Positions 2,033-22,382 of a DNA stretch of 64,000 nt are shown here, piece by piece. The DNA comes from an uncultured candidatus Brocadiaceae bacterium (lineage in GTDB: Bacteria > Planctomycetota > UBA1135 > UBA2386): NCBI GenBank assembly GCA_964418595.1, contig CAYQMF010000001.1, positions 92,258 through 156,257 on the forward strand. Reading direction: 5' to 3'. The notes beneath the pieces are model-generated. The model made no database searches and was not told the origin of the DNA. It was given only the letters and a program-made list of their open reading frames with translations. The position numbers and the translations under genes are program-made. Each line of letters begins with the position of its first letter. Positions within the stretch are counted from its first letter, which is position 1.

Positions 2033-2084
2033 CGGGGCGACGCCCGAGCTTGCGCACGCGTCGCGCAACCGCCAACCTCCGGCG

Positions 2085-3392
2085 ATGCGCGTCGTGCTCG
2101 TCCTCGCCATCCTCGGAGGCACGCTGGCTTTCGACCCCCAGGACGGCGCCCACCCCCGCGGGCACGACCGCGAAGGCCTCCTCGTCGCCGAGCGACCGCT
2201 TCCCCTCTACTCCGACGACGTCGATCACCCGCTCAACCGGCTGCACGCGGCGCTGTTCGTCGCCACGCTCGTGCCCGACGAGATCGGGGCCGCGCTTCCC
2301 GCGGAGCGCCGGACCGCGGGGGACGCGTTCTTCGCGCCGAAGTGGTACTTCGCACACCGCGCGGGCAAGGCCGACGATGCCGCGGTGTTCGGCGGCGACG
2401 TGCGGTTCTCGCCGCTGCGCGAGCTGAAGGGTGAGCGCGCCGGGCGCGTGCGCGAGTTGCTCGCCGCGATGCAGACCACGGCCCAGGTCGACGCGATCCC
2501 GGAGCTGCGCGCGCCGCTCATGCGCCTCCTCCTGCAGTGGGACCTGCTCTCGCTGTGGTGGCGCTGCGAGCGCGACGACGCCGCCGACGCGGACACGCTG
2601 CTCGCCATGGCGCGCGCCATCCAGGCGCTCGCGCTGGATCCGGCCACACTCGCCGCGTTGGCGTCGGGGCGCGACGAGCTGGGCGCGTACGTCACAGAAG
2701 ACTCACCCGATCCGGCGAAACCCTGGTTCCCAGCCGACCTGCTGGCCACGCCGTCGACCTTCGTCGAGATCGATCGCAAGGACATGGCCCTCTTCCACGC
2801 GGAGAAGTCGCTGCGCGCGGTGCGCGCTTTCGTGCGCGTGCCGGAAGGCCGTGAGGCGAGCGAGAAGGCCATCCTTGCCGCCGGCGCCGCCGGCAGGGAC
2901 GGCCCGCTCCCCGAGATCCCGCTCGGCTCCGAGGTGGCACTCGCGCTCTCGCTCCTGGCGGTGGCGCCCGACCTCTCGATCGTCGCGACCCCGGTGATCG
3001 ACGAGGTGCGCGTGCGCCGCATCACCGGCGAAGCGAAGTTCGCGCCCGACAACGGCAGCAGCCGCGACGGCATGAGCCACTGGGTCTACTTTCGCTCGCG
3101 GCGCGGCAGCCGCGTCCCGGCGACGACGCCCGCCTTCCGCTTCGTGCCCGACACGACGCAGGCCATGTTCCTGGAGTACGGCACCCTCAAGCGCACGACG
3201 TACTTCGCCCAGTGCGCCCTGTGCCACCGCCTCACTGGGGGCAGCACCCAGACCCCCGCCGGCATCACCTCGCTCGGCCGATTCGCCGAGGCAAAGGTCT
3301 GCGACGACCCGGCCACCCGGTTGCGGCGCGCCGAAGCGCAGGCCAGCAAGATCGGCGAACGGCTGCGCGCGCGGCTCGGCTCCTGCCGCTGA
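2085..3392 (+). CDS. Hypothetical exported protein with a single C-terminal CxxCH motif
   Basis: ATG at 2085. The N-terminus is hydrophobic (MRVVLVLAILGGTLAF). The frame is GC3-rich for 435 codons. CALCH is encoded at 3213-3227. I recognise no family. Confidence 0.6.
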   Translation: MRVVLVLAILGGTLAFDPQDGAHPRGHDREGLLVAERPLPLYSDDVDHPLNRLHAALFVATLVPDEIGAALPAERRTAGDAFFAPKWYFAHRAGKADDAAVFGGDVRFSPLRELKGERAGRVRELLAAMQTTAQVDAIPELRAPLMRLLLQWDLLSLWWRCERDDAADADTLLAMARAIQALALDPATLAALASGRDELGAYVTEDSPDPAKPWFPADLLATPSTFVEIDRKDMALFHAEKSLRAVRAFVRVPEGREASEKAILAAGAAGRDGPLPEIPLGSEVALALSLLAVAPDLSIVATPVIDEVRVRRITGEAKFAPDNGSSRDGMSHWVYFRSRRGSRVPATTPAFRFVPDTTQAMFLEYGTLKRTTYFAQCALCHRLTGGSTQTPAGITSLGRFAEAKVCDDPATRLRRAEAQASKIGERLRARLGSCR

Positions 3393-3470
3393 TCCGTTAT
3401 CTTGAACGGACCTGTAATGGCCCGCGCGGTCGTCGGACTGGTGGTGCGTCCCTCACCCAAACGAGAACCC

Positions 3471-3998
3471 ATGAACCTCCTCCGCAAGAACCTCCTCCGC
3501 AACGCCGCCGCCGCCCTTCTCTTCGCCGCCGCCCCCCTCAGCGCGCAGACCACGGGTGTCCCCGGCATCAACAACCTCCAGATGATGCTCCCGCCGGGCT
3601 ACCTCCCCACGGGCGGCAGCACGGTGTCCTGCTCGACCTTCGTCACCACCGGCGCCACCGGCACCAACGTCGTCGCCTTCCAGCTCGATGCAGTCGGCGC
3701 GACCGGCGCGATGCTGCTCGTCAGCCCGCTCGGCTGCAACCCGACGTACTGGCCGTTCTTCCCCACCGCCGCGCCCGCGTGCGCCGGCCCGCTCGGCGGC
3801 CCCACCAACCTCTGGCTGTCGCTCGTCGCCGGCGGCCCGTTCCCCATCATGATCGCGGGTCAGATCAACAGCGCCGGCATGGCGCGGTGGAACTTCAACC
3901 TCACCTGGCCGATCCCGCCGCTCTACTTCCAGGGCCTGATGATCGACCTCTGCTCGCCGACGGGCTTCAAGTTCTCGCAGGCGATGGGCTTCCAGTAG
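3471..3998 (+). CDS. Small secreted Cys-containing protein of unknown function
   Basis: The track ORF is 3402..3998. I prefer the ATG at 3471 (MNLLRKNLLRNAAAALLFAAAPLSAQ), which gives a canonical signal peptide. The C-terminal LYFQGLMID...GFQ resembles the module in four other exported proteins here. Confidence 0.6.
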   Translation: MNLLRKNLLRNAAAALLFAAAPLSAQTTGVPGINNLQMMLPPGYLPTGGSTVSCSTFVTTGATGTNVVAFQLDAVGATGAMLLVSPLGCNPTYWPFFPTAAPACAGPLGGPTNLWLSLVAGGPFPIMIAGQINSAGMARWNFNLTWPIPPLYFQGLMIDLCSPTGFKFSQAMGFQ

Positions 3999-4034
3999 GC
4001 CTGCGCGCTACCTGAGGTACTGCGCCGGGTCGGC
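3997..4034. repeat. Left copy of the 38/39-bp direct repeat flanking the mntA-hepT cassette
   Basis: aggcctgcgcgctacctgaggtactgcgccgggtcggc. It differs from 4879-4917 by 2 substitutions and 1 indel. It contains the palindrome TACCTGAGGTA. On the minus strand it encodes a ghost gene end, ...DPAQYLR-stop. Confidence 0.9.
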
Positions 4035-4054
4035 CTCGGGCCTAGACTGCGTTC

Positions 4055-4444
4055 GTGCTCGAGGCCATCGCCCAAGTCCTCCGTCAGGAACCGAGGGTCG
4101 CATACGCGCTCCTGTTCGGTTCCAGGGCTCGGGGAGATGCGCGCCAAGACAGCGACCTGGACCTGGCAGTGGGCACGAGCGCCGGCCTGGATGCGCGCGA
4201 ACTGGGAGATCTGATCGGACGCCTCGAGAGCGTGTCGGGCGCGACCGTCGATCTGATCCTCCTCGACGAGGCACCGCCTGCACTGGCCTACCGGGTCTTC
4301 CGCGACGGTGTGGTCGTGCTCGAGCGGGACCACCGCGCGTTGGTCGCGCGCAAGGCCAAGGCAGTGCTGGAGTACCTCGACTTCAAGCCGATCGAAGACC
4401 TGTGCGCGGCGGGCGCGTTGGCGGTGGCGCGGCGTGGTCGATAA
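4055..4444 (+). CDS. mntA: MntA-type nucleotidyltransferase (type VII antitoxin)
   Basis: GTG at 4055. It has the minimal nucleotidyltransferase motif LFGSRARGDARQDSDLDLAV (GSx..GxxxxxSDxD), is 129 aa long, and sits immediately upstream of and overlapping a DUF86 gene. Confidence 0.85.
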   Translation: MLEAIAQVLRQEPRVAYALLFGSRARGDARQDSDLDLAVGTSAGLDARELGDLIGRLESVSGATVDLILLDEAPPALAYRVFRDGVVVLERDHRALVARKAKAVLEYLDFKPIEDLCAAGALAVARRGR

Positions 4445-4868
4445 GCCACTCCTCGCGAAGGGGCTCGCCGAGATTCGCGACGCCGTGTTGCGGATTCGCG
4501 ACGTGCTGCCAGCCAGGTTCGAGGACTTCGCCAAGGACCGCACGGCGCGTGAGGTCGTCGTGCTCAACCTGTTCGTCGCGCTGCAACTGTGTCTGACGCT
4601 CGCCGCCCACTGGTTGGCGGATGAGGGGCGCAAGGTGCCGGCTGGCTACCGTGACCTGTTCCTCGCCCTGGCGGGCACGGGCGCGCTCGAAGCCGGACTC
4701 GCTTCGCGACTTGCCGCGGCGTCGGGTCTCCGCAACCTGATCGCGCATCGCTACGGCATCATCGACTGGGCGCGCATCCATGCGATCGCCGGGCGCGACC
4801 TCGACGACCTCCTGGCATTCTGCACACAGTTGGCACTGCGGGCCGACCAGGCACCACCTGGACCGTGA
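4434..4868 (+). CDS. hepT: HepT-type (DUF86) RNase toxin
   Basis: The in-frame GTG at 4434 overlaps the mntA stop by 11 nt (the track ORF 4308..4868 is over-extended upstream). The HEPN Rx4HxY motif is present as RNLIAHRY. Confidence 0.85.
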   Translation: MVDKPLLAKGLAEIRDAVLRIRDVLPARFEDFAKDRTAREVVVLNLFVALQLCLTLAAHWLADEGRKVPAGYRDLFLALAGTGALEAGLASRLAAASGLRNLIAHRYGIIDWARIHAIAGRDLDDLLAFCTQLALRADQAPPGP

Positions 4869-4878
4869 GCGCGGTCGA

Positions 4879-4917
4879 AGGCCCGCGCGCTACCTGAGGT
4901 ACTCCGCCGGGATCGGC
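4879..4917. repeat. Right copy of the direct repeat flanking the mntA-hepT cassette
   Basis: aggcccgcgcgctacctgaggtactccgccgggatcggc. It overlaps the true 3' end (...PIPAEYLR-stop) of the minus-strand ThuA-like gene. Confidence 0.9.
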
Positions 4918-6359
4918 GCCGTCGCGCTCTCCTGCTGCCAGAACACGTTCAGGATCCACCAGCGGGTGCCGTCGAAGACGCACTGGATGCTGTTGATCCC
5001 GCGCATGAAGGGCTTCGCCTCCTCGCCGCGCCACGCCTCGTAGGTGCTGAACACCTGCGCGATGTTGCCGAAACGATCGACGCGGCGCGCGATCTCCTTC
5101 TCACGGAAGCCCATGCTCACCAGGCTGTCGCCGGAGCGCGCGATGTAGTCCTCGACGCTCACGAAGGTGTGGCCGTGACCGCCACCCGACCGCGGCCCGC
5201 TCGGGATCAAGCGGGCGTCGGGGGCGAAGAGCGAGCGCATGAGGTCGAAGTCGCGGGGCGCGCCGACCGGGCCGGAGATCGCCGCGTAGAGCCCCGCGAT
5301 GATGCCGTCGAGCGTGGTCAGGTCCCCGCCGAGGGCGGCCTGCGCCGGCGTCATCGCCTTCTCGACCCAGTGCTCGTCCTTGTGGAAGGCAAACCGCGAC
5401 GGGTCGTACGCGCCGACGAGCGCCGCGTCGGTGCCGGTCGCCGGGATCGCTTCGCCGAGCCCCGCGAGCCAGTACACCGCGTTCACCAGCATCCGCCGCG
5501 TGCCCTCGCGCACGAGGTCGGTGGACGCCCCCATCGTCGTCGCGAATGAGCGCCCCGGCTTCCCGCCGGGCAACGTGTAGGTCTTGGTCCACGCCACCGG
5601 CATCAACGGGTCGTTCTTCTTGCCCTCCACCGGCGCGTCGTCCGGCGACATCCCGGCCAGCACCTGCCCGAGCACGATCGGTTGGCTGTCGCCGGGCAAT
5701 GGCAGGCGCACGCCGTACACATCGGTGGGCCCCCACACGTCGCGATCCTGCAGGCCGCGCGTCAGCACGTGCGTGCGCGCGCCGGGCGCGATCAGGCCGC
5801 CCGTGCTCTCCTGGCCGTGGTGGCCATGGTGGCTGATCCACATCTCGCCGAGCACCAGCCGTCCGAAGCCCCCCTTCCACTCGGCCGGCTCACCGCCGAA
5901 CCCGTTGCCGTAGCGCGCGTACGGCTTGTCCTTCGGAATGTTGAACGCGTGCGTCGCGGTGCGCATGCCGAGCACCGGGCCGCCGCGCATGAGGTACGCG
6001 TCGATGTGCGCCATCTGCTCGTCGGGCAGGTCGCGGAAGCGCGTCTGGATCACCATCACATCCGCCGACGCGAGCGCCTCGAGGCCGGGGATGTTGTGCG
6101 TGTTGTTCGGCTGGATCTGGCCGGTTGCCGGATCGATCGCGAACAGCACCGTGCAACGGAAGCCGTGCCGCACGGCGAGGATCTTGCCCAGCGCGGGCAG
6201 CGCTTCCTCGCTGCGGTACTCCTCGTCGCCGGACACCAGCACGATGTGCTTGCCCTTGCCGGGGCCGTCCCCGCCTTCGTAGGTGGTCCACGGCTGCTGA
6301 GCCGCGGCGGGCGGGAGGAAGACGCAGAGCGCGAGGAGGGAAGTCTTCATGACGGGCAT
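4890..6359 (-). CDS. Exported ThuA-like (class I glutamine amidotransferase-fold) domain fused to a C-terminal NTF2/SnoaL-like domain
   Basis: The start is the ATG at 6359 (MPVMKTSLLALCVFLPPAAAQ, a signal peptide). The track ORF 4890..6836 is over-extended into the upstream gene. The ThuA-like core reads HIVLVSGDEEYRSEE...VMVIQTRF. The last ~140 aa look like an NTF2-like fold (GIIAGLYAAISG...CVFDGTRWWILNVFWQ). It lies 12 nt downstream of the 1462-aa gene. Confidence 0.75.
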   Translation of the reverse strand: MPVMKTSLLALCVFLPPAAAQQPWTTYEGGDGPGKGKHIVLVSGDEEYRSEEALPALGKILAVRHGFRCTVLFAIDPATGQIQPNNTHNIPGLEALASADVMVIQTRFRDLPDEQMAHIDAYLMRGGPVLGMRTATHAFNIPKDKPYARYGNGFGGEPAEWKGGFGRLVLGEMWISHHGHHGQESTGGLIAPGARTHVLTRGLQDRDVWGPTDVYGVRLPLPGDSQPIVLGQVLAGMSPDDAPVEGKKNDPLMPVAWTKTYTLPGGKPGRSFATTMGASTDLVREGTRRMLVNAVYWLAGLGEAIPATGTDAALVGAYDPSRFAFHKDEHWVEKAMTPAQAALGGDLTTLDGIIAGLYAAISGPVGAPRDFDLMRSLFAPDARLIPSGPRSGGGHGHTFVSVEDYIARSGDSLVSMGFREKEIARRVDRFGNIAQVFSTYEAWRGEEAKPFMRGINSIQCVFDGTRWWILNVFWQQESATAPIPAEYLR

Positions 6360-6370
6360 GGGTGGTCGGT

Positions 6371-9300
6371 TCACGGACGGACGTGCATCACGCCGCGCAT
6401 GATGCGCCAGTGGCCGGGGAAGGTGCAGACGTACGGGTAGTCGCCGGGGGTCGAGGGCGCCGTGAACTCCAGGGTCGCGCTCTCGCCGGGGTTGAGCAGG
6501 CGGATCGAGTGCAGCACGCGCGGGTCCTGCGGCACGAAGTTCTTCGCGAAGCCGTCGGCCCCCATCACGTCGGCGAGCGCGCCGATCGCCTCGAGCGAGC
6601 CCGGTGCGAGGATCAGCAGGTTGTGCTGCATGGCGTCCGGATTCCGCAGGACGAGCCGCACCGGCCGACCCGCGGTGACCGCGAACTCCTCCTGGTCGTA
6701 GCGCATCTTCTCGGGCACCGTGCGCAGCTCGACGACCTGCGGGTTGATCGCGGTCAGCGAAGCGCGCACCGGTGTCGCCTCCGCTGCGGGCAAGGCACCC
6801 GCGAGCTGCTCCGTCAGCCGCACCACACGCTTCCACGCCTCCGCCTCACGCTCCGCCGGCGCCGCCGCCGTCGCGATCCGCAGCAGGTCGCGCACGAGCA
6901 CCCGGGCGACGGGCGCCGGCATCTCCGCACACGGCATCTGCAGGAGCGCGTCGACCGCCGCGCCGCGCACCTGGTCGGCGCGTACGAGCTGCGCCAGATC
7001 TGCGAACTTCGCGTCGCGCTGCCCCGGCACCCGCACCGCGGCCGCAATCGCCGCGCGCCGCAACGCGAGGCTGCCGTCGACGCTCAGCGCGGCCGCGGGG
7101 ATGTCCTGCTTGCCGAAGCCGGGCCCGCTCCACGCCAGGCGCAGATGATCGGCGCCGCCGGCGTCGTAGTAGGTGACGACGATGGGGTGCTGGCCGACCA
7201 GAAGGTCGATCGTGCCACGCTTCTCGACCACGCCGTGCGGGCCATCGTTGCTGACCACTTCGCGGTCGTCGACCCATAGGCGCGAGCCGTCGTCGGACGC
7301 GCAGAAGAACGTGTACTTCCCCGGCGCCGCCACGCTCAGCGTCGCCGACAGCACGAGCGCGTAGGGCTCGCTCGTGATCCCGGGGACCTCGTGCGTGAAG
7401 GTCTCGACCGTACCCATGGCCTTGGGCGTGAGCGCCGCCAGCGTCTCACGCCGCACGTCGGGGAAGCTCTGCTCCTCGTACAGCGAAAACGCGACGCCGG
7501 TGCTGCCCGGCGCGCCCGCCGCGAGGCTCTCCGGCACCCCGAACATCAGCGGCTGCACGCGCGCCCACGCGTCGCCCGCGGTCGCGGGCAACTCGCCGCC
7601 GAACGCAATCCCGCGCAACAGCTCGCTCAGGGCGGCGACGCTGGTGCTCGCGGTCTCCCACGCCGAAGCGACCCCGCCCGACGCCCGCACCCAGGCGCCG
7701 TAGGCGGCGGCGCGCACGTCGCTCCGCTTCGCCTCGCGCGCCAGCGCCTGCACCTCCGCCAGTCTGCCGGTCAGCTCCGCCGGCGGCCAGGCGACCAGCA
7801 GCGCACCGAGGTCCGTCGCCCCCGGCGCATCCGACGCCGCGCCGCGCAGGCTCGCCAGCAGTTCGACCAGCGCCGGCCGACCGCTCTTCTGCGCGAGCGC
7901 TTCGAGCGCGCTGCGGCGCTCGCTCGCGGCCACGCCGGCGCGGCCCAGCAAAGCCTTGCACACCGCGTCGGTGCGCGGCAGGCGCGCGAGGTCGGCGGCG
8001 TCGACCATGTCGAGCAGCCAGGCCAACCCCGCGTCGTGGCCCTTCGCGAACGACTCGCCGGCGCGGATCGCCTCCGTCCACTGCGGGCGCAGGGTCAGCA
8101 TGGTCTCGCGCAGCATGTAGCGCAGGTAGCGGTCCAAGGGCTGGCTTGCGGCGCGCAGCGCGATCTCCGCCGCGCGGGCGCTGGCGAAGAAGCTGCACGC
8201 CCGCACCACCTCCGCGCGCACGCGCGCATCGGGATCGACGACCATCTCGCCGAGCACGTCGAGCGCATACGGCGCCGTGTGGCGGACCTCGCACAGCACG
8301 CGCGTGGCGGCCGCGCGCGCCCGCGCCTCCGGCGAGCGGAGCACGCGACGCAGGTGGTCGGCGTCGACGGCGTCGCACATCTGCTGCACCCACAGCGCCT
8401 CGAGCAGCAGGTGCTCGCGATCCGGTGCGTCGGCGGGCAGCGCCGCGAGCCACGCCTGCAGCGCGACGAGGACCTTCGCCGGCGGACGGCCCGAGAGTTC
8501 CCGCCGCGCCCGGTAGCGCACCGGGTCGTCGCGCTCCGCGAGCTGCGCCATGAGCGTCGCCTCGCTCGCTTCGTGGTTCGCCTTCGGCGTGAGCCTGCTC
8601 CGCTCCGGGTTGCTGATGCGATACACGCGGCCGTGCACGCGATCGCGGCTCGGATCGCGCAGGTTGTGCTGCATGTGCCCGATGATCGGGTTCTGCCAAT
8701 CGACGAAGTACACCGCCCCGTCGCCGCCGATCTCGACGTCGACCGGCCGGAAGTTCGAGTCCGTCGACGACACCAACGGCTCGACCTCCGTGGCCTGGAA
8801 GCCCGCGCCGTCGTCCTCGAAGCGGTACTGCAGGATGCCGAGGAAACCGATGCAGTTGCTCACCAGCCAGTTGCCCTGCATCGCCTCGGGGAAGTGCGCG
8901 CTGGACAGGATCGCGGTGCCGCCGCACGGCCGCGTGCGCTGGCGGTACACGGTGGGCGCGCCGGCCACCTTGCGCGGGTGCTCCGTGTGCACGGAGATCG
9001 CCGCGCCCCAGTACGGCACGGCACCCGTGCCGTCGGTGACGAAGTCCTGGCCCCAGCGGTCGAACACGTGCCCGTGCGGGTTGGCGAAGCCGTACGCCGC
9101 ATACACCTCGAAGCGATCGCTGCGCGGCTCGTAACGGAACACGCCGGCGTTGAAGCTCCGCACCGGCGGTCCCCACGGCGTCTCGACGCCGGTGTGGTGA
9201 AACGTGCCCTCCTGCATGTAGAGCGCGCCGCCGGGGCTGAACACGAAGCTGTTGATCGAGTGGTGCGTGTCGGCGGAATCGATGCCGGAGAGCACGCGCA

Positions 9301-19767: not shown

Positions 19768-19865
19768 CAGCCCGATGACGTCCTCGCCGCCGTGATCGGC
19801 AACAAGCCGGCGCAGGGCACCGGGGCGATTGAACACCCAGGTCCCCTGCGGGTAGCGTGCCCCCG

Positions 19866-20813
19866 ATGGCAAAGACCAACCCGCCGGACGACGACGCGGA
19901 GATAGCGAAGAAGCTGTTCTTCCAAGAGTTCCTGATCGACTTCCTGGGCGGTCTCGTTCCAGGGATCCTCTTCCTGGTAGCAGCGACGTTCGCTGCAGTC
20001 CCCCCGCTGTTGGCGCTGTTCACGGCGCTCAAGCCGCCGCCCCCGCCAGGTTCGCCAGACCCCGGGCCTGGACAAATGCTACTGGAGGCTCTGTCGAAGA
20101 CGCAGAATACGCCGAGCGCGGTATGGATCAGCGCGTTCGTCATATTCGTACTCCTAGCCTATGTCATCGGCCACCTCTTCTACCGACACGACCTCAAGCG
20201 TGCCGATCGAGCAAGCTTCGCCAGACTAGCAAAGACAGAGGATAACAAGACGGATGAAGGCAAGAAACGCAACCTGGCCTGCTCGAACGTCTCCGAATGC
20301 GAGTTCCCCTATCCCTATTACCATTTGTACCTCCAGCAGCGCGGTCTGACCCATCTCGTCCCCCTAGCCGTCTGGCGCAAGAATCAATTCCACCGTAGCA
20401 AGACCTACATCAACACGCTCAAGATACGTCTCAAGCACTACTATCCCGACAAGTGCGGGACCATTATCAAAAACGAGGCCCACGTCCGCCTAGCGTCGTC
20501 TGCTTGGTATGTCTCACTACTCCTCATTGTCTTGGCTGTCGTGGCCATCGTCGTCGTCGGTGCAGCCCTGATCATCTCTTGGAGTAGGGGTCGGCTCGGT
20601 TCATGGAGCGATTACGCGCTCGCCCATCTGCCGGGTTTCGTAGCTCCAGCTATCGTTCTCGGCATGGCCGCTTTCTCTAGGAAGATCATCAACGGGTTCC
20701 TTCATTACCAACGGTTGCGCGAGGTCTTCTTTGTGCTGGAAACTGCGTTCACAGCCTTTCGCGACAACACCGACCGACTTGATCCGCCATTCCCCCAAGC
20801 GCCCGAAAATTGA
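19866..20813 (+). CDS. Orphan 4-TM membrane protein of unknown function
   Basis: ATG at 19866 (MAKTNPPDDD...); the track starts at GTG 19857. It has two TM pairs (LVPGILFLVAATFAAVPPLLALF and VWISAFVIFVLLAYVIGHLF; AWYVSLLLIVLAVVAIVVVGAALII and FVAPAIVLGMAAF). These flank a ~115-aa basic/aromatic loop. Many codons end in A/T. Confidence 0.65.
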   Translation: MAKTNPPDDDAEIAKKLFFQEFLIDFLGGLVPGILFLVAATFAAVPPLLALFTALKPPPPPGSPDPGPGQMLLEALSKTQNTPSAVWISAFVIFVLLAYVIGHLFYRHDLKRADRASFARLAKTEDNKTDEGKKRNLACSNVSECEFPYPYYHLYLQQRGLTHLVPLAVWRKNQFHRSKTYINTLKIRLKHYYPDKCGTIIKNEAHVRLASSAWYVSLLLIVLAVVAIVVVGAALIISWSRGRLGSWSDYALAHLPGFVAPAIVLGMAAFSRKIINGFLHYQRLREVFFVLETAFTAFRDNTDRLDPPFPQAPEN

Positions 20814-20898
20814 GGCGGAGCTGAGTAAGACGCGGTTTCACAACCTGGTACATGGATGGCACTTGTACTTTTTCCCGGTCTGTGGCTTCGTCTGCGGG

Positions 20899-21550
20899 AT
20901 GGCAAAGCGATTCTCACGAATCCTGAGCGACGAGCAATGGTCAGTCCTGCAGCCGCTGTTCCCCACGCCGAAGGTGCGCAAGGGCAGGAACAAGGGCGGG
21001 CGGCCATGGCGTGGCAACCGCGAGTGCCTCGAGGGGATCATCTGGATCTTGCGCTCGGGAGCGCGATGGCGGGATCTGCCGCCTCCGTTTCCGAGCGGCG
21101 TGACGTGCTGGCGCCGCTTGCGGGATTGGCAGAAGAAGAGAGTCTGGCGAGCGGCCTGGGAGGCGCTGCTCGGTGTTCTGGACGAACGGGGTCGACTCGA
21201 CCTGCAAGAGGCGTACGTGGACGCGACCTTTCGGGCCGCCAGAAAGAGGCGACGGAATTGGCCTCACGAAGCGTGGGAAGGGCACGAAGGCCGAGTTCCT
21301 CGTGAGCCCAGAGGGCGTGCCGCTGGCCGCGGTCAGTGCCCCCGCTTCGGTCGGAGAAACCAAGCTTGTCGAGCCAGTGCTCGAGCAACTCAACGGCAGC
21401 GGCTGCCCGGACCTCTGGCCAGAGATCGTGATCGCGGACAAGGCGTACGACAGCGACGCCCTACGAGACGTCACCGCATCGGTCGGCATCCTCCTGCTTT
21501 CTCCCCATCGGCGGAACCGGCGGCCCGACAAGCGCACGAACGACGCATGA
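20899..21550 (+). pseudogene. IS5-family (DUF4096 + DDE, IS427/IS1031-like) transposase, frame-broken and 3'-truncated
   Basis: The N-terminal part, in the frame of track ORF 20731..21561, reads MAKRFSRILSDEQWSVLQPLFP...LRSGARWRDLPPPFPSGVTCWRRLRDW. Similarity jumps near 21229-21235 to the frame of ORF 21173..21550 (LTKRGKGTKAEFLV...IVIADKAYDSDALR...SPHRRNR). The product ends before the expected C-terminal RWxVE/RYE catalytic region. Confidence 0.8.
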
Positions 21551-21557
21551 GATCGTC

Positions 21558-22382
21558 GTGACGTCGCCGGGCGAACATCGCCGTGGCCTGTCGAAGAGGA
21601 TCTGCGAAGTGATGGGCGGAAGACGAACGGACGCCTCAAGGACCGATCGTGCCGTGACGTGCTGCAGAAGCTGGACGCAGCAGGCTTCCTGCACCTGCCC
21701 CCGAGGCGGCGGCCACCGACGTGCCGGCAACCGATCCAGATCACCGCCCACACAGATCCCCGACCAGCCCCTGCTGCCTTCGGCCCGCGCGACGTTGGCA
21801 CCGAGTGCTTCCAGATCGTCTCGCGTGATGGACACTCCGCCGCGGCGAGGCTGTGGAACGAGTACGTCGAGCGGTACCACTACCTGTGCTACGGCATCCC
21901 CGTCGGACCGCACATCAAGTACTTCGTCCACGTGCATGACGAGCCCATCGCCCTCATAGCCTTCGGCGGAGCCGCATGGAAGACTGCACCTCGCGACCAG
22001 TGGATCGGTTGGTCCAGAGCGCAACGGGAAGCCAACCTGCATCTCGTCGTCAACAACACCCGCTTCCTGATCCTCCCTTGGATTCGCATCGACAACCTCG
22101 CCTCGCGCTTGCTGTCGATCGCCGCAAAGCGACTACCGGAAGACTGGAATCGCCTATGCCTACCGACCGCTTCTCCTTGAGACCTTCGTCCACGCCGAGC
22201 GCCATGCGGGAACGTGCTACCGAGCCGCGAACTGGATCTGCGTCGGCACCACCAAGGGCCGCGGTAAGACCAACCGCAGCAAGAAGGACCGCATCCCCAA
22301 GAAGCTCGTCTCTTTGCTTCCGCTCGTTCGCGATGCACGCGAAAGGCTCGCGGCTGCCGACGCAGGCAATGTCGACCCGTGA
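21558..22382 (+). pseudogene. DUF4338 (DruA-like) gene remnant with at least two frame breaks
   Basis: Family-like segments lie in three frames. These are RRGLSKRICEVMG, then KTNGRLKDRSCRDVLQKLDAAGFLHLPP...VERYHYLCYG...AAWKTAPRDQWIGWS...VVNNTRFLILPWIRIDNLASRLL...EDWN, then YAYRPLLLETFVHAERHAGTCYRAANWICVGTTKGRGK. The breaks are near 21612-21618 and 22150-22153. The N-terminal part is missing. Confidence 0.7.

Follow-up and report, generated by a model that had tools for sequence, protein, structure and literature searches.

A type VII toxin–antitoxin module inserted between two convergent planctomycete genes and flanked by a 39-bp duplication of its target

The window analyzed here, a 64,000-nt stretch of contig CAYQMF010000001.1 (positions 92,258 to 156,257 of the forward strand) from an uncultured candidatus Brocadiaceae bacterium of the Planctomycetota (GenBank assembly GCA_964418595.1), contains an 844-bp segment with an mntA–hepT operon, encoding a type VII toxin–antitoxin (TA) pair, at the junction of two convergent genes (Table 1). 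The segment was inserted there in the window lineage, as opposed to having been lost from the relative that lacks it, and the direct repeat that brackets it derives from the target. Insertion accompanied by a target-derived duplication is very likely, and a joining step that was independent of a recombinase rather than site-specific is favored with more reserve; the statement taken whole, namely that an 844-bp TA segment was inserted, 39 bp of target were duplicated and the joining was recombinase-independent, we consider probable.

Repeat pair, empty site and inserted module

The preliminary description of the locus, made from the sequence alone, had reported a 38/39-bp direct repeat whose copies differ by two substitutions and one indel and are offset by 882 bp, and rereading of the sequence confirmed this. 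The copies agree at 36 positions, the indel is of 1 nt, the longest exact run common to both is 19 nt, and similarity ceases at both ends, giving the repeat sharp edges. The 19-nt exact core occurs twice in the window against an expectation of 0.01; the flank-to-flank local alignment scores 30, compared with a null mean of 10–12.7 and a null maximum of 16.5; and this pair is the sole high-identity local direct repeat in the 64 kb. No further copies were found in the window, in ~1 Mb of fetched related loci or in a metagenome scan, other than the orthologous ThuA 3′ ends and two chance matches. The latter were obtained by scanning metagenome contigs with the 19-mer core, fell in an unrelated gene end (..GKYLR and stop) and in an internal ARYLRY, and were rejected because their number is about what chance predicts.

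The right copy comprises 11 nt past the stop of the minus-strand ThuA-like gene, the stop codon itself and the last eight to nine codons (..PIPAEYLR and stop), and 28 of the 39 repeat nucleotides are conserved ThuA-like coding sequence. The left copy begins at base 2 of the stop of the plus-strand gene, with which it overlaps by 2 nt, and on the minus strand it reads ..ADPAQYLR and stop. The right copy had been proposed to be the genuine end of the ThuA-like gene and the left copy a ghost of it, and alignment of the orthologous 3′ ends in related loci (L053, L054, L055, L001 and L062) bore this out: the right copy aligns with these ends and shows a single derived change, which lies outside the coding part (T>C at 4884). 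Two changes in the left copy, a deletion of 1 nt that breaks the frame and a plus-strand C>G substitution, are shared with no ortholog (alignment with L062, L053 and L054), and this copy is therefore regarded as a decaying ghost. Since two changes in the left copy and one in the right have accrued after the duplication, the event was not recent.

The empty site lies in L062, a contig (JADJWB010000013.1) of a Phycisphaerales metagenome-assembled genome (MAG) that was reached by a search with the 175-aa left neighbor. In L062, a 172-aa ortholog of the left gene (8001–8519) stands tail to tail with a convergent ThuA-like ortholog, which is in frame to the contig end and whose product ends in ..WWILNVFWQQESAATPIPAEYLK and stop; 9 nt separate the two stops, and the junction contains one repeat copy and no TA genes. 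The left flank aligns with L062 over 0.55 kb and 1.3 kb and the right flank over 1.3 kb, and window 4039–4878 has no L062 counterpart, either by blastn or in a three-way junction alignment. Because two of the blastn alignments overlap on L062 8518–8560, AGGCCTGCGCGCTACTTCAGATACTCCGCCGGGATCGGC, which matches both window 3997–4038 and window 4879–4921, the two window repeat copies correspond to one L062 sequence. The earlier suggestion that the TA pair is a discrete cassette inserted at a junction of convergent genes is thus upheld by a relative with a single copy and no TA genes; moreover, no relative was seen with both copies and without the TA genes, nor is the repeat a multicopy element of the repetitive extragenic palindromic (REP) type, either of which would have spoken against that suggestion.

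The polarity of the event is indicated by the codons CTC AGG (Leu-Arg), which are common to both window copies; L062 and L054 have CTG AAG at this place, and L053 has CTG CGG. Because both copies carry window-specific substitutions, the duplication arose in the window lineage, which argues for insertion and against precise loss in L062. ThuA-side orthologs (P0002 and P0003) were also considered as sources of an empty site; however, their synteny with the window ends precisely at the ThuA-like stop codon, with unrelated genes beyond it, and they are therefore uninformative. A search of genome contigs with the ThuA-like protein gave a best relative of 66% identity and no empty site.

Within the repeat, the palindrome TACCTGAGGTA (TACCT-G-AGGTA) pointed out in the preliminary description is present in the window, but it has no detectable significance: it is not kept in the single L062 copy, TACTTCAGATA, and shuffled sequence folds as well as the repeat does (DNA folding z about −0.8 to +0.9). 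A scan of the repeat gave no terminator or promoter consensus, and direct reading of the sequence gave no attC consensus (RYYYAAC / GTTRRRY) in or beside it.

Only mntA and hepT lie between the repeat copies, and they form a co-oriented operon with the antitoxin first and an 11-nt overlap at 4434–4444; the gene content and overlap given earlier are confirmed by Pfam and NCBIfam matches together with the coordinates. The products score 88.6 bits (MntA_antitoxin, NF047752) and 98.8 bits (HepT_toxin, NF047751) against a cut-off of 60 for each equivalog, and the HepT product of the gene caller (P0121) has the same length as the hepT open reading frame (ORF). The GSX10DXD motif of MntA (GSRARGDARQDSDLD, residues 22–36) is intact, as is the Rx4H motif of HepT with the tyrosine that follows it (RNLIAHRY, residues 100–107). 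Neutralization of HepT by MntA would proceed by (oligo)AMPylation, of which the conserved tyrosine after Rx4H is the only visible sign. Compared with known type VII HepT/MntA systems, the genes are unremarkable: the equivalog cut-offs are passed, the catalytic motifs are intact, and the operon is overlapping and antitoxin-first.

In composition, mntA and hepT have a G+C content at third codon positions (GC3) of 0.80–0.81, versus 0.93–0.97 in the neighboring genes, and this measure separates them better than the overall G+C content of the cassette, which is slightly low (68% versus 71%); the atypical GC3 is a foreign signature. The CTAGACT box upstream of mntA is found at a matching offset in L056 (about 1783–1789) and L057 (about 35–41), and CTACAGT is found in L065 (about 3504–3510). 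The box is possibly a cassette-borne −10 element giving a leaderless transcript; a scan found no sigma-70 consensus promoter, and read-through from the upstream gene is another possible source of mntA–hepT transcription. A test of the insert ends for terminal inverted repeats was negative (score 5 versus a null mean of 6.3). GGTCGA occurs 4 nt past the HepT stop in the window (4873–4878) and 9 nt past it in L057 (about 864–869). Cassette homology may run up to the right-repeat junction (GGTCGA/AGGCC versus GGTCGAGAGC), and the GGTCGA at this junction hints at microhomology at the join.

TABLE 1 Features of the MntA–HepT locus and blastn alignments of the window with L062; positions are those of the window unless L062 is named
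Feature	Position	Strand	Evidence or description
Left flanking gene, 175-aa secreted protein, family not assigned	3471..3998	+	ORF; TAG stop 3996-3998
Left repeat copy	3997-4034		AGGCCTGCGCGCTACCTGAGGTACTGCGCCGGGTCGGC, 38 nt; non-functional ghost of ThuA-like gene 3′ end
Inserted segment, 844 bp	4035..4878	+	8 nt filler, mntA–hepT operon with conserved upstream box, 10 nt filler
CTAGACT box	4043..4049	+	6-12 nt upstream of MntA start; homology to related cassettes at the DNA level begins here
mntA, type VII antitoxin, adenylyltransferase, 129 aa	4055..4444	+	PF18765 8.9e-20; NCBIfam NF047752 equivalog
hepT, type VII HEPN RNase toxin, 144 aa	4434..4868	+	PF01934 1.4e-21; NCBIfam NF047751 equivalog
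Right repeat copy	4879-4917		AGGCCCGCGCGCTACCTGAGGTACTCCGCCGGGATCGGC, 39 nt; native ThuA-like gene 3′ end
Right flanking gene, 489-aa secreted ThuA-domain protein	4890..6359	-	PF06283 4.7e-9; intact, ends ..PIPAEYLR and stop
blastn alignment	2083-3376		L062 5804-7106; 78.7% identity
blastn alignment	3491-4038		L062 8006-8560; 79.7% identity
blastn alignment	4879-6198		L062 8518-9843; 86.6% identity

Related modules and the mode of joining

The closest relatives of the TA pair are found in L056 and L057, whose HepT proteins are 85% (P0122) and 82% (P0123) identical at the amino acid level to that of the window. At the DNA level, the similarity of these two loci to the window begins at CTAGACT (4043), 12 nt ahead of the MntA start codon, and ends at the HepT stop (4868); their flanks and neighboring genes are unrelated to those of the window, and there is no repeat-like sequence at either cassette boundary. 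More distant family members (L058, L065–L068, and L069) lie in other gene contexts again. Because related modules in other contexts are without the repeat, the repeat is target DNA and not a cassette end; and because the relatives occupy unrelated contexts, the MntA–HepT module has moved or been acquired repeatedly.

Two further observations concern the family. In L056, a 20-nt direct repeat (18/20; 1688–1707 and 3281–3300) brackets MntA–HepT together with a 135-aa ORF, and reaches borderline significance when set against shuffled sequence (p about 0.05, uncorrected). In six of the seven independent family loci (L056, L057, L058, L065–L067, L068 and L069, compared with the window), hepT is followed by a convergent gene, often across a gap of only 15–130 nt, a tendency that is not statistically significant, and the gene upstream is co-directional where visible; this suggests survival of, or preference for, convergent junctions by MntA–HepT modules.

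Insertion with long target duplication has been described as a class for restriction–modification (RM) gene complexes (Nobusato et al., 2000, Gene 259:99; Furuta, Abe and Kobayashi, 2010, NAR 38:2428, PMC2853133), and is recognized by a duplication of > 30 bp, an insert of < 20 kb that contains the complete module but no mobility genes, and the correspondence of both repeats to a single sequence in a related genome without the insert (Furuta et al., 2010). At the locus described here, the repeat is 38/39 nt long, the 844-bp insert is without mobility genes, and L062 has a single copy with conserved flanks. The likeness extends to the cargo being a small addiction module. The repeats of the RM cases are unique, and the present one has no further copy within the 64-kb window or, apart from orthologous gene ends, in the other fetched loci. 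In two Haemophilus influenzae cases, 15 bp or 2 bp of the 46-bp repeat belong to the 3′ terminus of a neighboring gene (Furuta et al., 2010). The geometry here is very like theirs, the repeat taking in 28 nt of the ThuA-like gene and 2 nt of the left gene. The differences lie in the type VII TA cargo, which has no DNA-cleaving enzyme on board, in the unusually minimal insert and the Planctomycetota-type high-GC genome of the host, and in the comparison being made across related species-level lineages and not between strains. A DNA-cleaving enzyme able to make the initiating break was suggested as a common property of the RM cases (Furuta et al., 2010), the long-target-duplication route is named for RM systems only in a later review (Mruk and Kobayashi, 2014, PMC3874152), and in our literature search for long duplications around TA modules only RM examples came up. 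However, RM cargo reflects the scope of the original survey and is no mechanistic requirement, and the locus is therefore placed in this class with a different cargo.

An 844-bp segment holding little beyond an intact type VII operon entered the junction of the two convergent genes. We posit that it came as a linear fragment, the ends of which would have been joined illegitimately, without a recombinase, at target positions 39 bp apart. Such staggered joining could have involved, for instance, a pair of sister duplexes where a replication fork or a chromosome break was present; alternatively, staggered processing could have been followed by fill-in. The duplicated stretch extends from base 2 of the stop of the left gene to 28 nt inside the ThuA-like gene, such that the copy on the ThuA side keeps that gene intact, under selection, and the other copy keeps the left stop and otherwise decays. 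Both neighboring genes are preserved after the insertion. With only 9 nt between the stops, nearly any other outcome would truncate a neighbor, which would account for the survival of the duplication product. Once inserted, the addictive TA pair would favor its own retention.

Several points weigh against this explanation. The mode of joining is deduced from its product. Only one relative offers an empty site, and it represents a different species-level lineage (79–87% nucleotide identity), not a sister strain; further, integration at an attachment (att) site would also leave one copy in the empty site, which by itself does not tell the two modes apart. At seven other family loci (five independent contexts), no significant flanking direct repeats were found within 300 and 1000 nt, and because of these five independent loci the insertion mode is not demonstrated as a family-wide property. 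No donor or vehicle was matched in plasmid, phage, and viral collections. Finally, the scan for repeat uniqueness covered the 64-kb window and the fetched loci, and that for recombinases covered ORFs located in its first ~24 kb.

Among the alternatives, site-specific integration fares best, yet we consider it unlikely. The 39 bp would then be an att site, present as attB in L062 and as attL and attR in the window, on which a tyrosine or serine recombinase with its gene elsewhere would act, and the incoming DNA would be a small circular, non-autonomous TA element with attP. As in integrase-mediated islands that target gene 3′ ends, for which such an arrangement is typical, the target gene keeps an intact 3′ end, which the direct repeats duplicate, and the empty site has exactly one copy; in addition, the insert is a neat 844-bp unit, and att identities of more than 30 bp are on record for some integrases (Furuta et al., 2010, PMC2853133). 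However, no recombinase domain was identified in the insert or in the ORFs scanned within the first ~24 kb, consistent with the earlier statement that neither an integrase nor a transposase accompanies the module (the sole mobility-related match being a transposase fragment 16 kb away), and the element is < 1 kb. The closest cassette relatives, L056 and L057, are without repeat-like ends, hence no copy of attP is seen; the repeat does not recur elsewhere in the window or in the ~1 Mb of related loci, nor meaningfully in the metagenome scan; and there is no conserved inverted-repeat core, given that the palindrome is missing from the L062 copy and the folding z is near 0. Nor is there a second copy at ThuA-like orthologs with other downstream neighbors, and the site is not reused by other cargo among the relatives examined. 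The preliminary description had left the choice between an att-like site and an unusually long duplication undecided; on the basis of these observations the long target duplication is favored over the att-like site.

Integron gene cassettes and Xer-dependent dif modules are known ways in which small TA cassettes move without a recombinase of their own. The MntA–HepT insert resembles them as a small, near promoter-less one- or two-gene TA cassette between repeated sites. It differs from them in having no attC consensus ends, no bottom-strand hairpin and no 11-6-11 dif-like architecture, and in that the boundary repeat is host coding sequence and not a cassette-borne site.

It is improbable that the module is what remains of a larger island or prophage, integrated at a 39-bp att site in the ThuA-like 3′ end and internally deleted down to the TA genes. 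TA modules are often carried by integrative elements and are hard to lose (Mruk and Kobayashi, 2014, PMC3874152), and the divergence of the copies at three positions agrees with an event that is not recent; however, there is no pseudogene debris, no integrase fragment was found, and the 8 and 10 nt of filler would require near base-precise deletions on both sides, making a decayed larger element unlikely.

An equally slight probability attaches to the proposal that MntA–HepT, and perhaps other naked TA pairs, are autonomous minimal mobile units that insert at convergent junctions by a dedicated long-duplication process, in which the Pol-beta-fold nucleotidyltransferase of the module itself, or circles arising by recombination between the duplicated ends, might be involved. 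If true, this would extend Kobayashi's virus-like RM life cycle to TA systems.

Slightly less credible again is a history without insertion in the window lineage, in which an ancestral TA pair was lost in L062 by recombination between its two repeats, or one in which the TA pair landed by chance between pre-existing repeats. Recombination between 39-bp repeats would regenerate a clean single copy, structurally like a never-occupied site, but the shared CTC AGG would then need parallel change or gene conversion; furthermore, the other ThuA-like orthologs each possess just one 3′ end, the TA genes are atypical in GC3, and related modules lie in unrelated contexts.

The view that the repeat is a generic intergenic element (REP-like, a miniature inverted-repeat transposable element, a terminator or an integron attC) or an artefact of assembly is very improbable: although a short palindrome occurs in the repeat, which is situated at a gene junction, and the assembly is metagenome-style with relatives that are MAGs, the core has two copies in 64 kb against 0.01 expected, 28 of 39 nt are conserved ThuA-like coding sequence, there is no terminator or promoter consensus, attC signature, terminal inverted repeat or better-than-shuffled folding, and imperfect copies with a longest exact run of 19 nt are not expected from k-mer misassembly, which renders an artefact unlikely.

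Flanking genes and surrounding sequence

The 175-aa protein encoded on the left flank has no match in Pfam or NCBIfam, and its orthologs (P0242–P0247) are 74–77% identical to it. The neighbor on the right had been called ThuA-like, and it does contain a ThuA domain (PF06283); however, this domain is fused to a C-terminal domain of ~145 aa, and it is in the second domain that the repeat falls. Orthologs of the ThuA-like protein include P0002 (85% identity), P0003 (83%), and P0004 (66%), and the orthologs in the loci compared above are 85% (L053), 83% (L054 and L055), and 66% (L001) identical at the amino acid level. The C-terminal ~145 residues (window 4890–5330) match no Pfam or NCBIfam family; this domain occurs stand-alone in Flavobacteriia, Chitinophaga, and Gemmatimonadota (L043–L052), and most planctomycete ThuA homologs are without it.

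In L053, a stretch of 18 nt (1710–1727, compared with 1617–1637) that nearly repeats the ThuA-like 3′ end in inverted orientation sits within the 3′ end of a convergent methyltransferase gene (..AIPADYRGAQD and stop; E = 0.076). It is probably due to chance, or it could be the trace of another rearrangement at the end of the ThuA-like gene.

The window and L062 differ by a second indel: in L062, a minus-strand msrB (SelR) gene (7124–7555) is located between the orthologs of window 2085–3392 and window 3471–3998, at a place where the window has 78 nt (3393–3470). There is no flanking direct repeat at this indel.

The transposase fragment mentioned above is a DDE_Tnp_1 match (21104–21547, 6.8e-8), and it is directly followed by a Druantia DruA fragment (21551–22177, 6.2e-27). 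Both lie in a patch of low GC3 (19833–22180; 0.71–0.77, versus about 0.9 elsewhere), which is probably a decayed mobile or defense island.

Implications for the movement of toxin–antitoxin modules

The movement of ‘naked’ chromosomal TA modules, which have neither a transposase nor an integrase linked to them, has been little documented. The MntA–HepT locus provides a base-precise before-and-after view of such a movement, with a known empty site, an 844-bp insert, and a 39-bp duplication that spared both genes. Because it is a single case, its value is that of an example and a search template and not of a new principle. It shows that the long-target-duplication route, known for RM systems, applies also to a TA module without a DNA-cutting enzyme; and, given such a cargo, it weakens the idea that an endonuclease encoded by the cargo initiates insertions of this kind.

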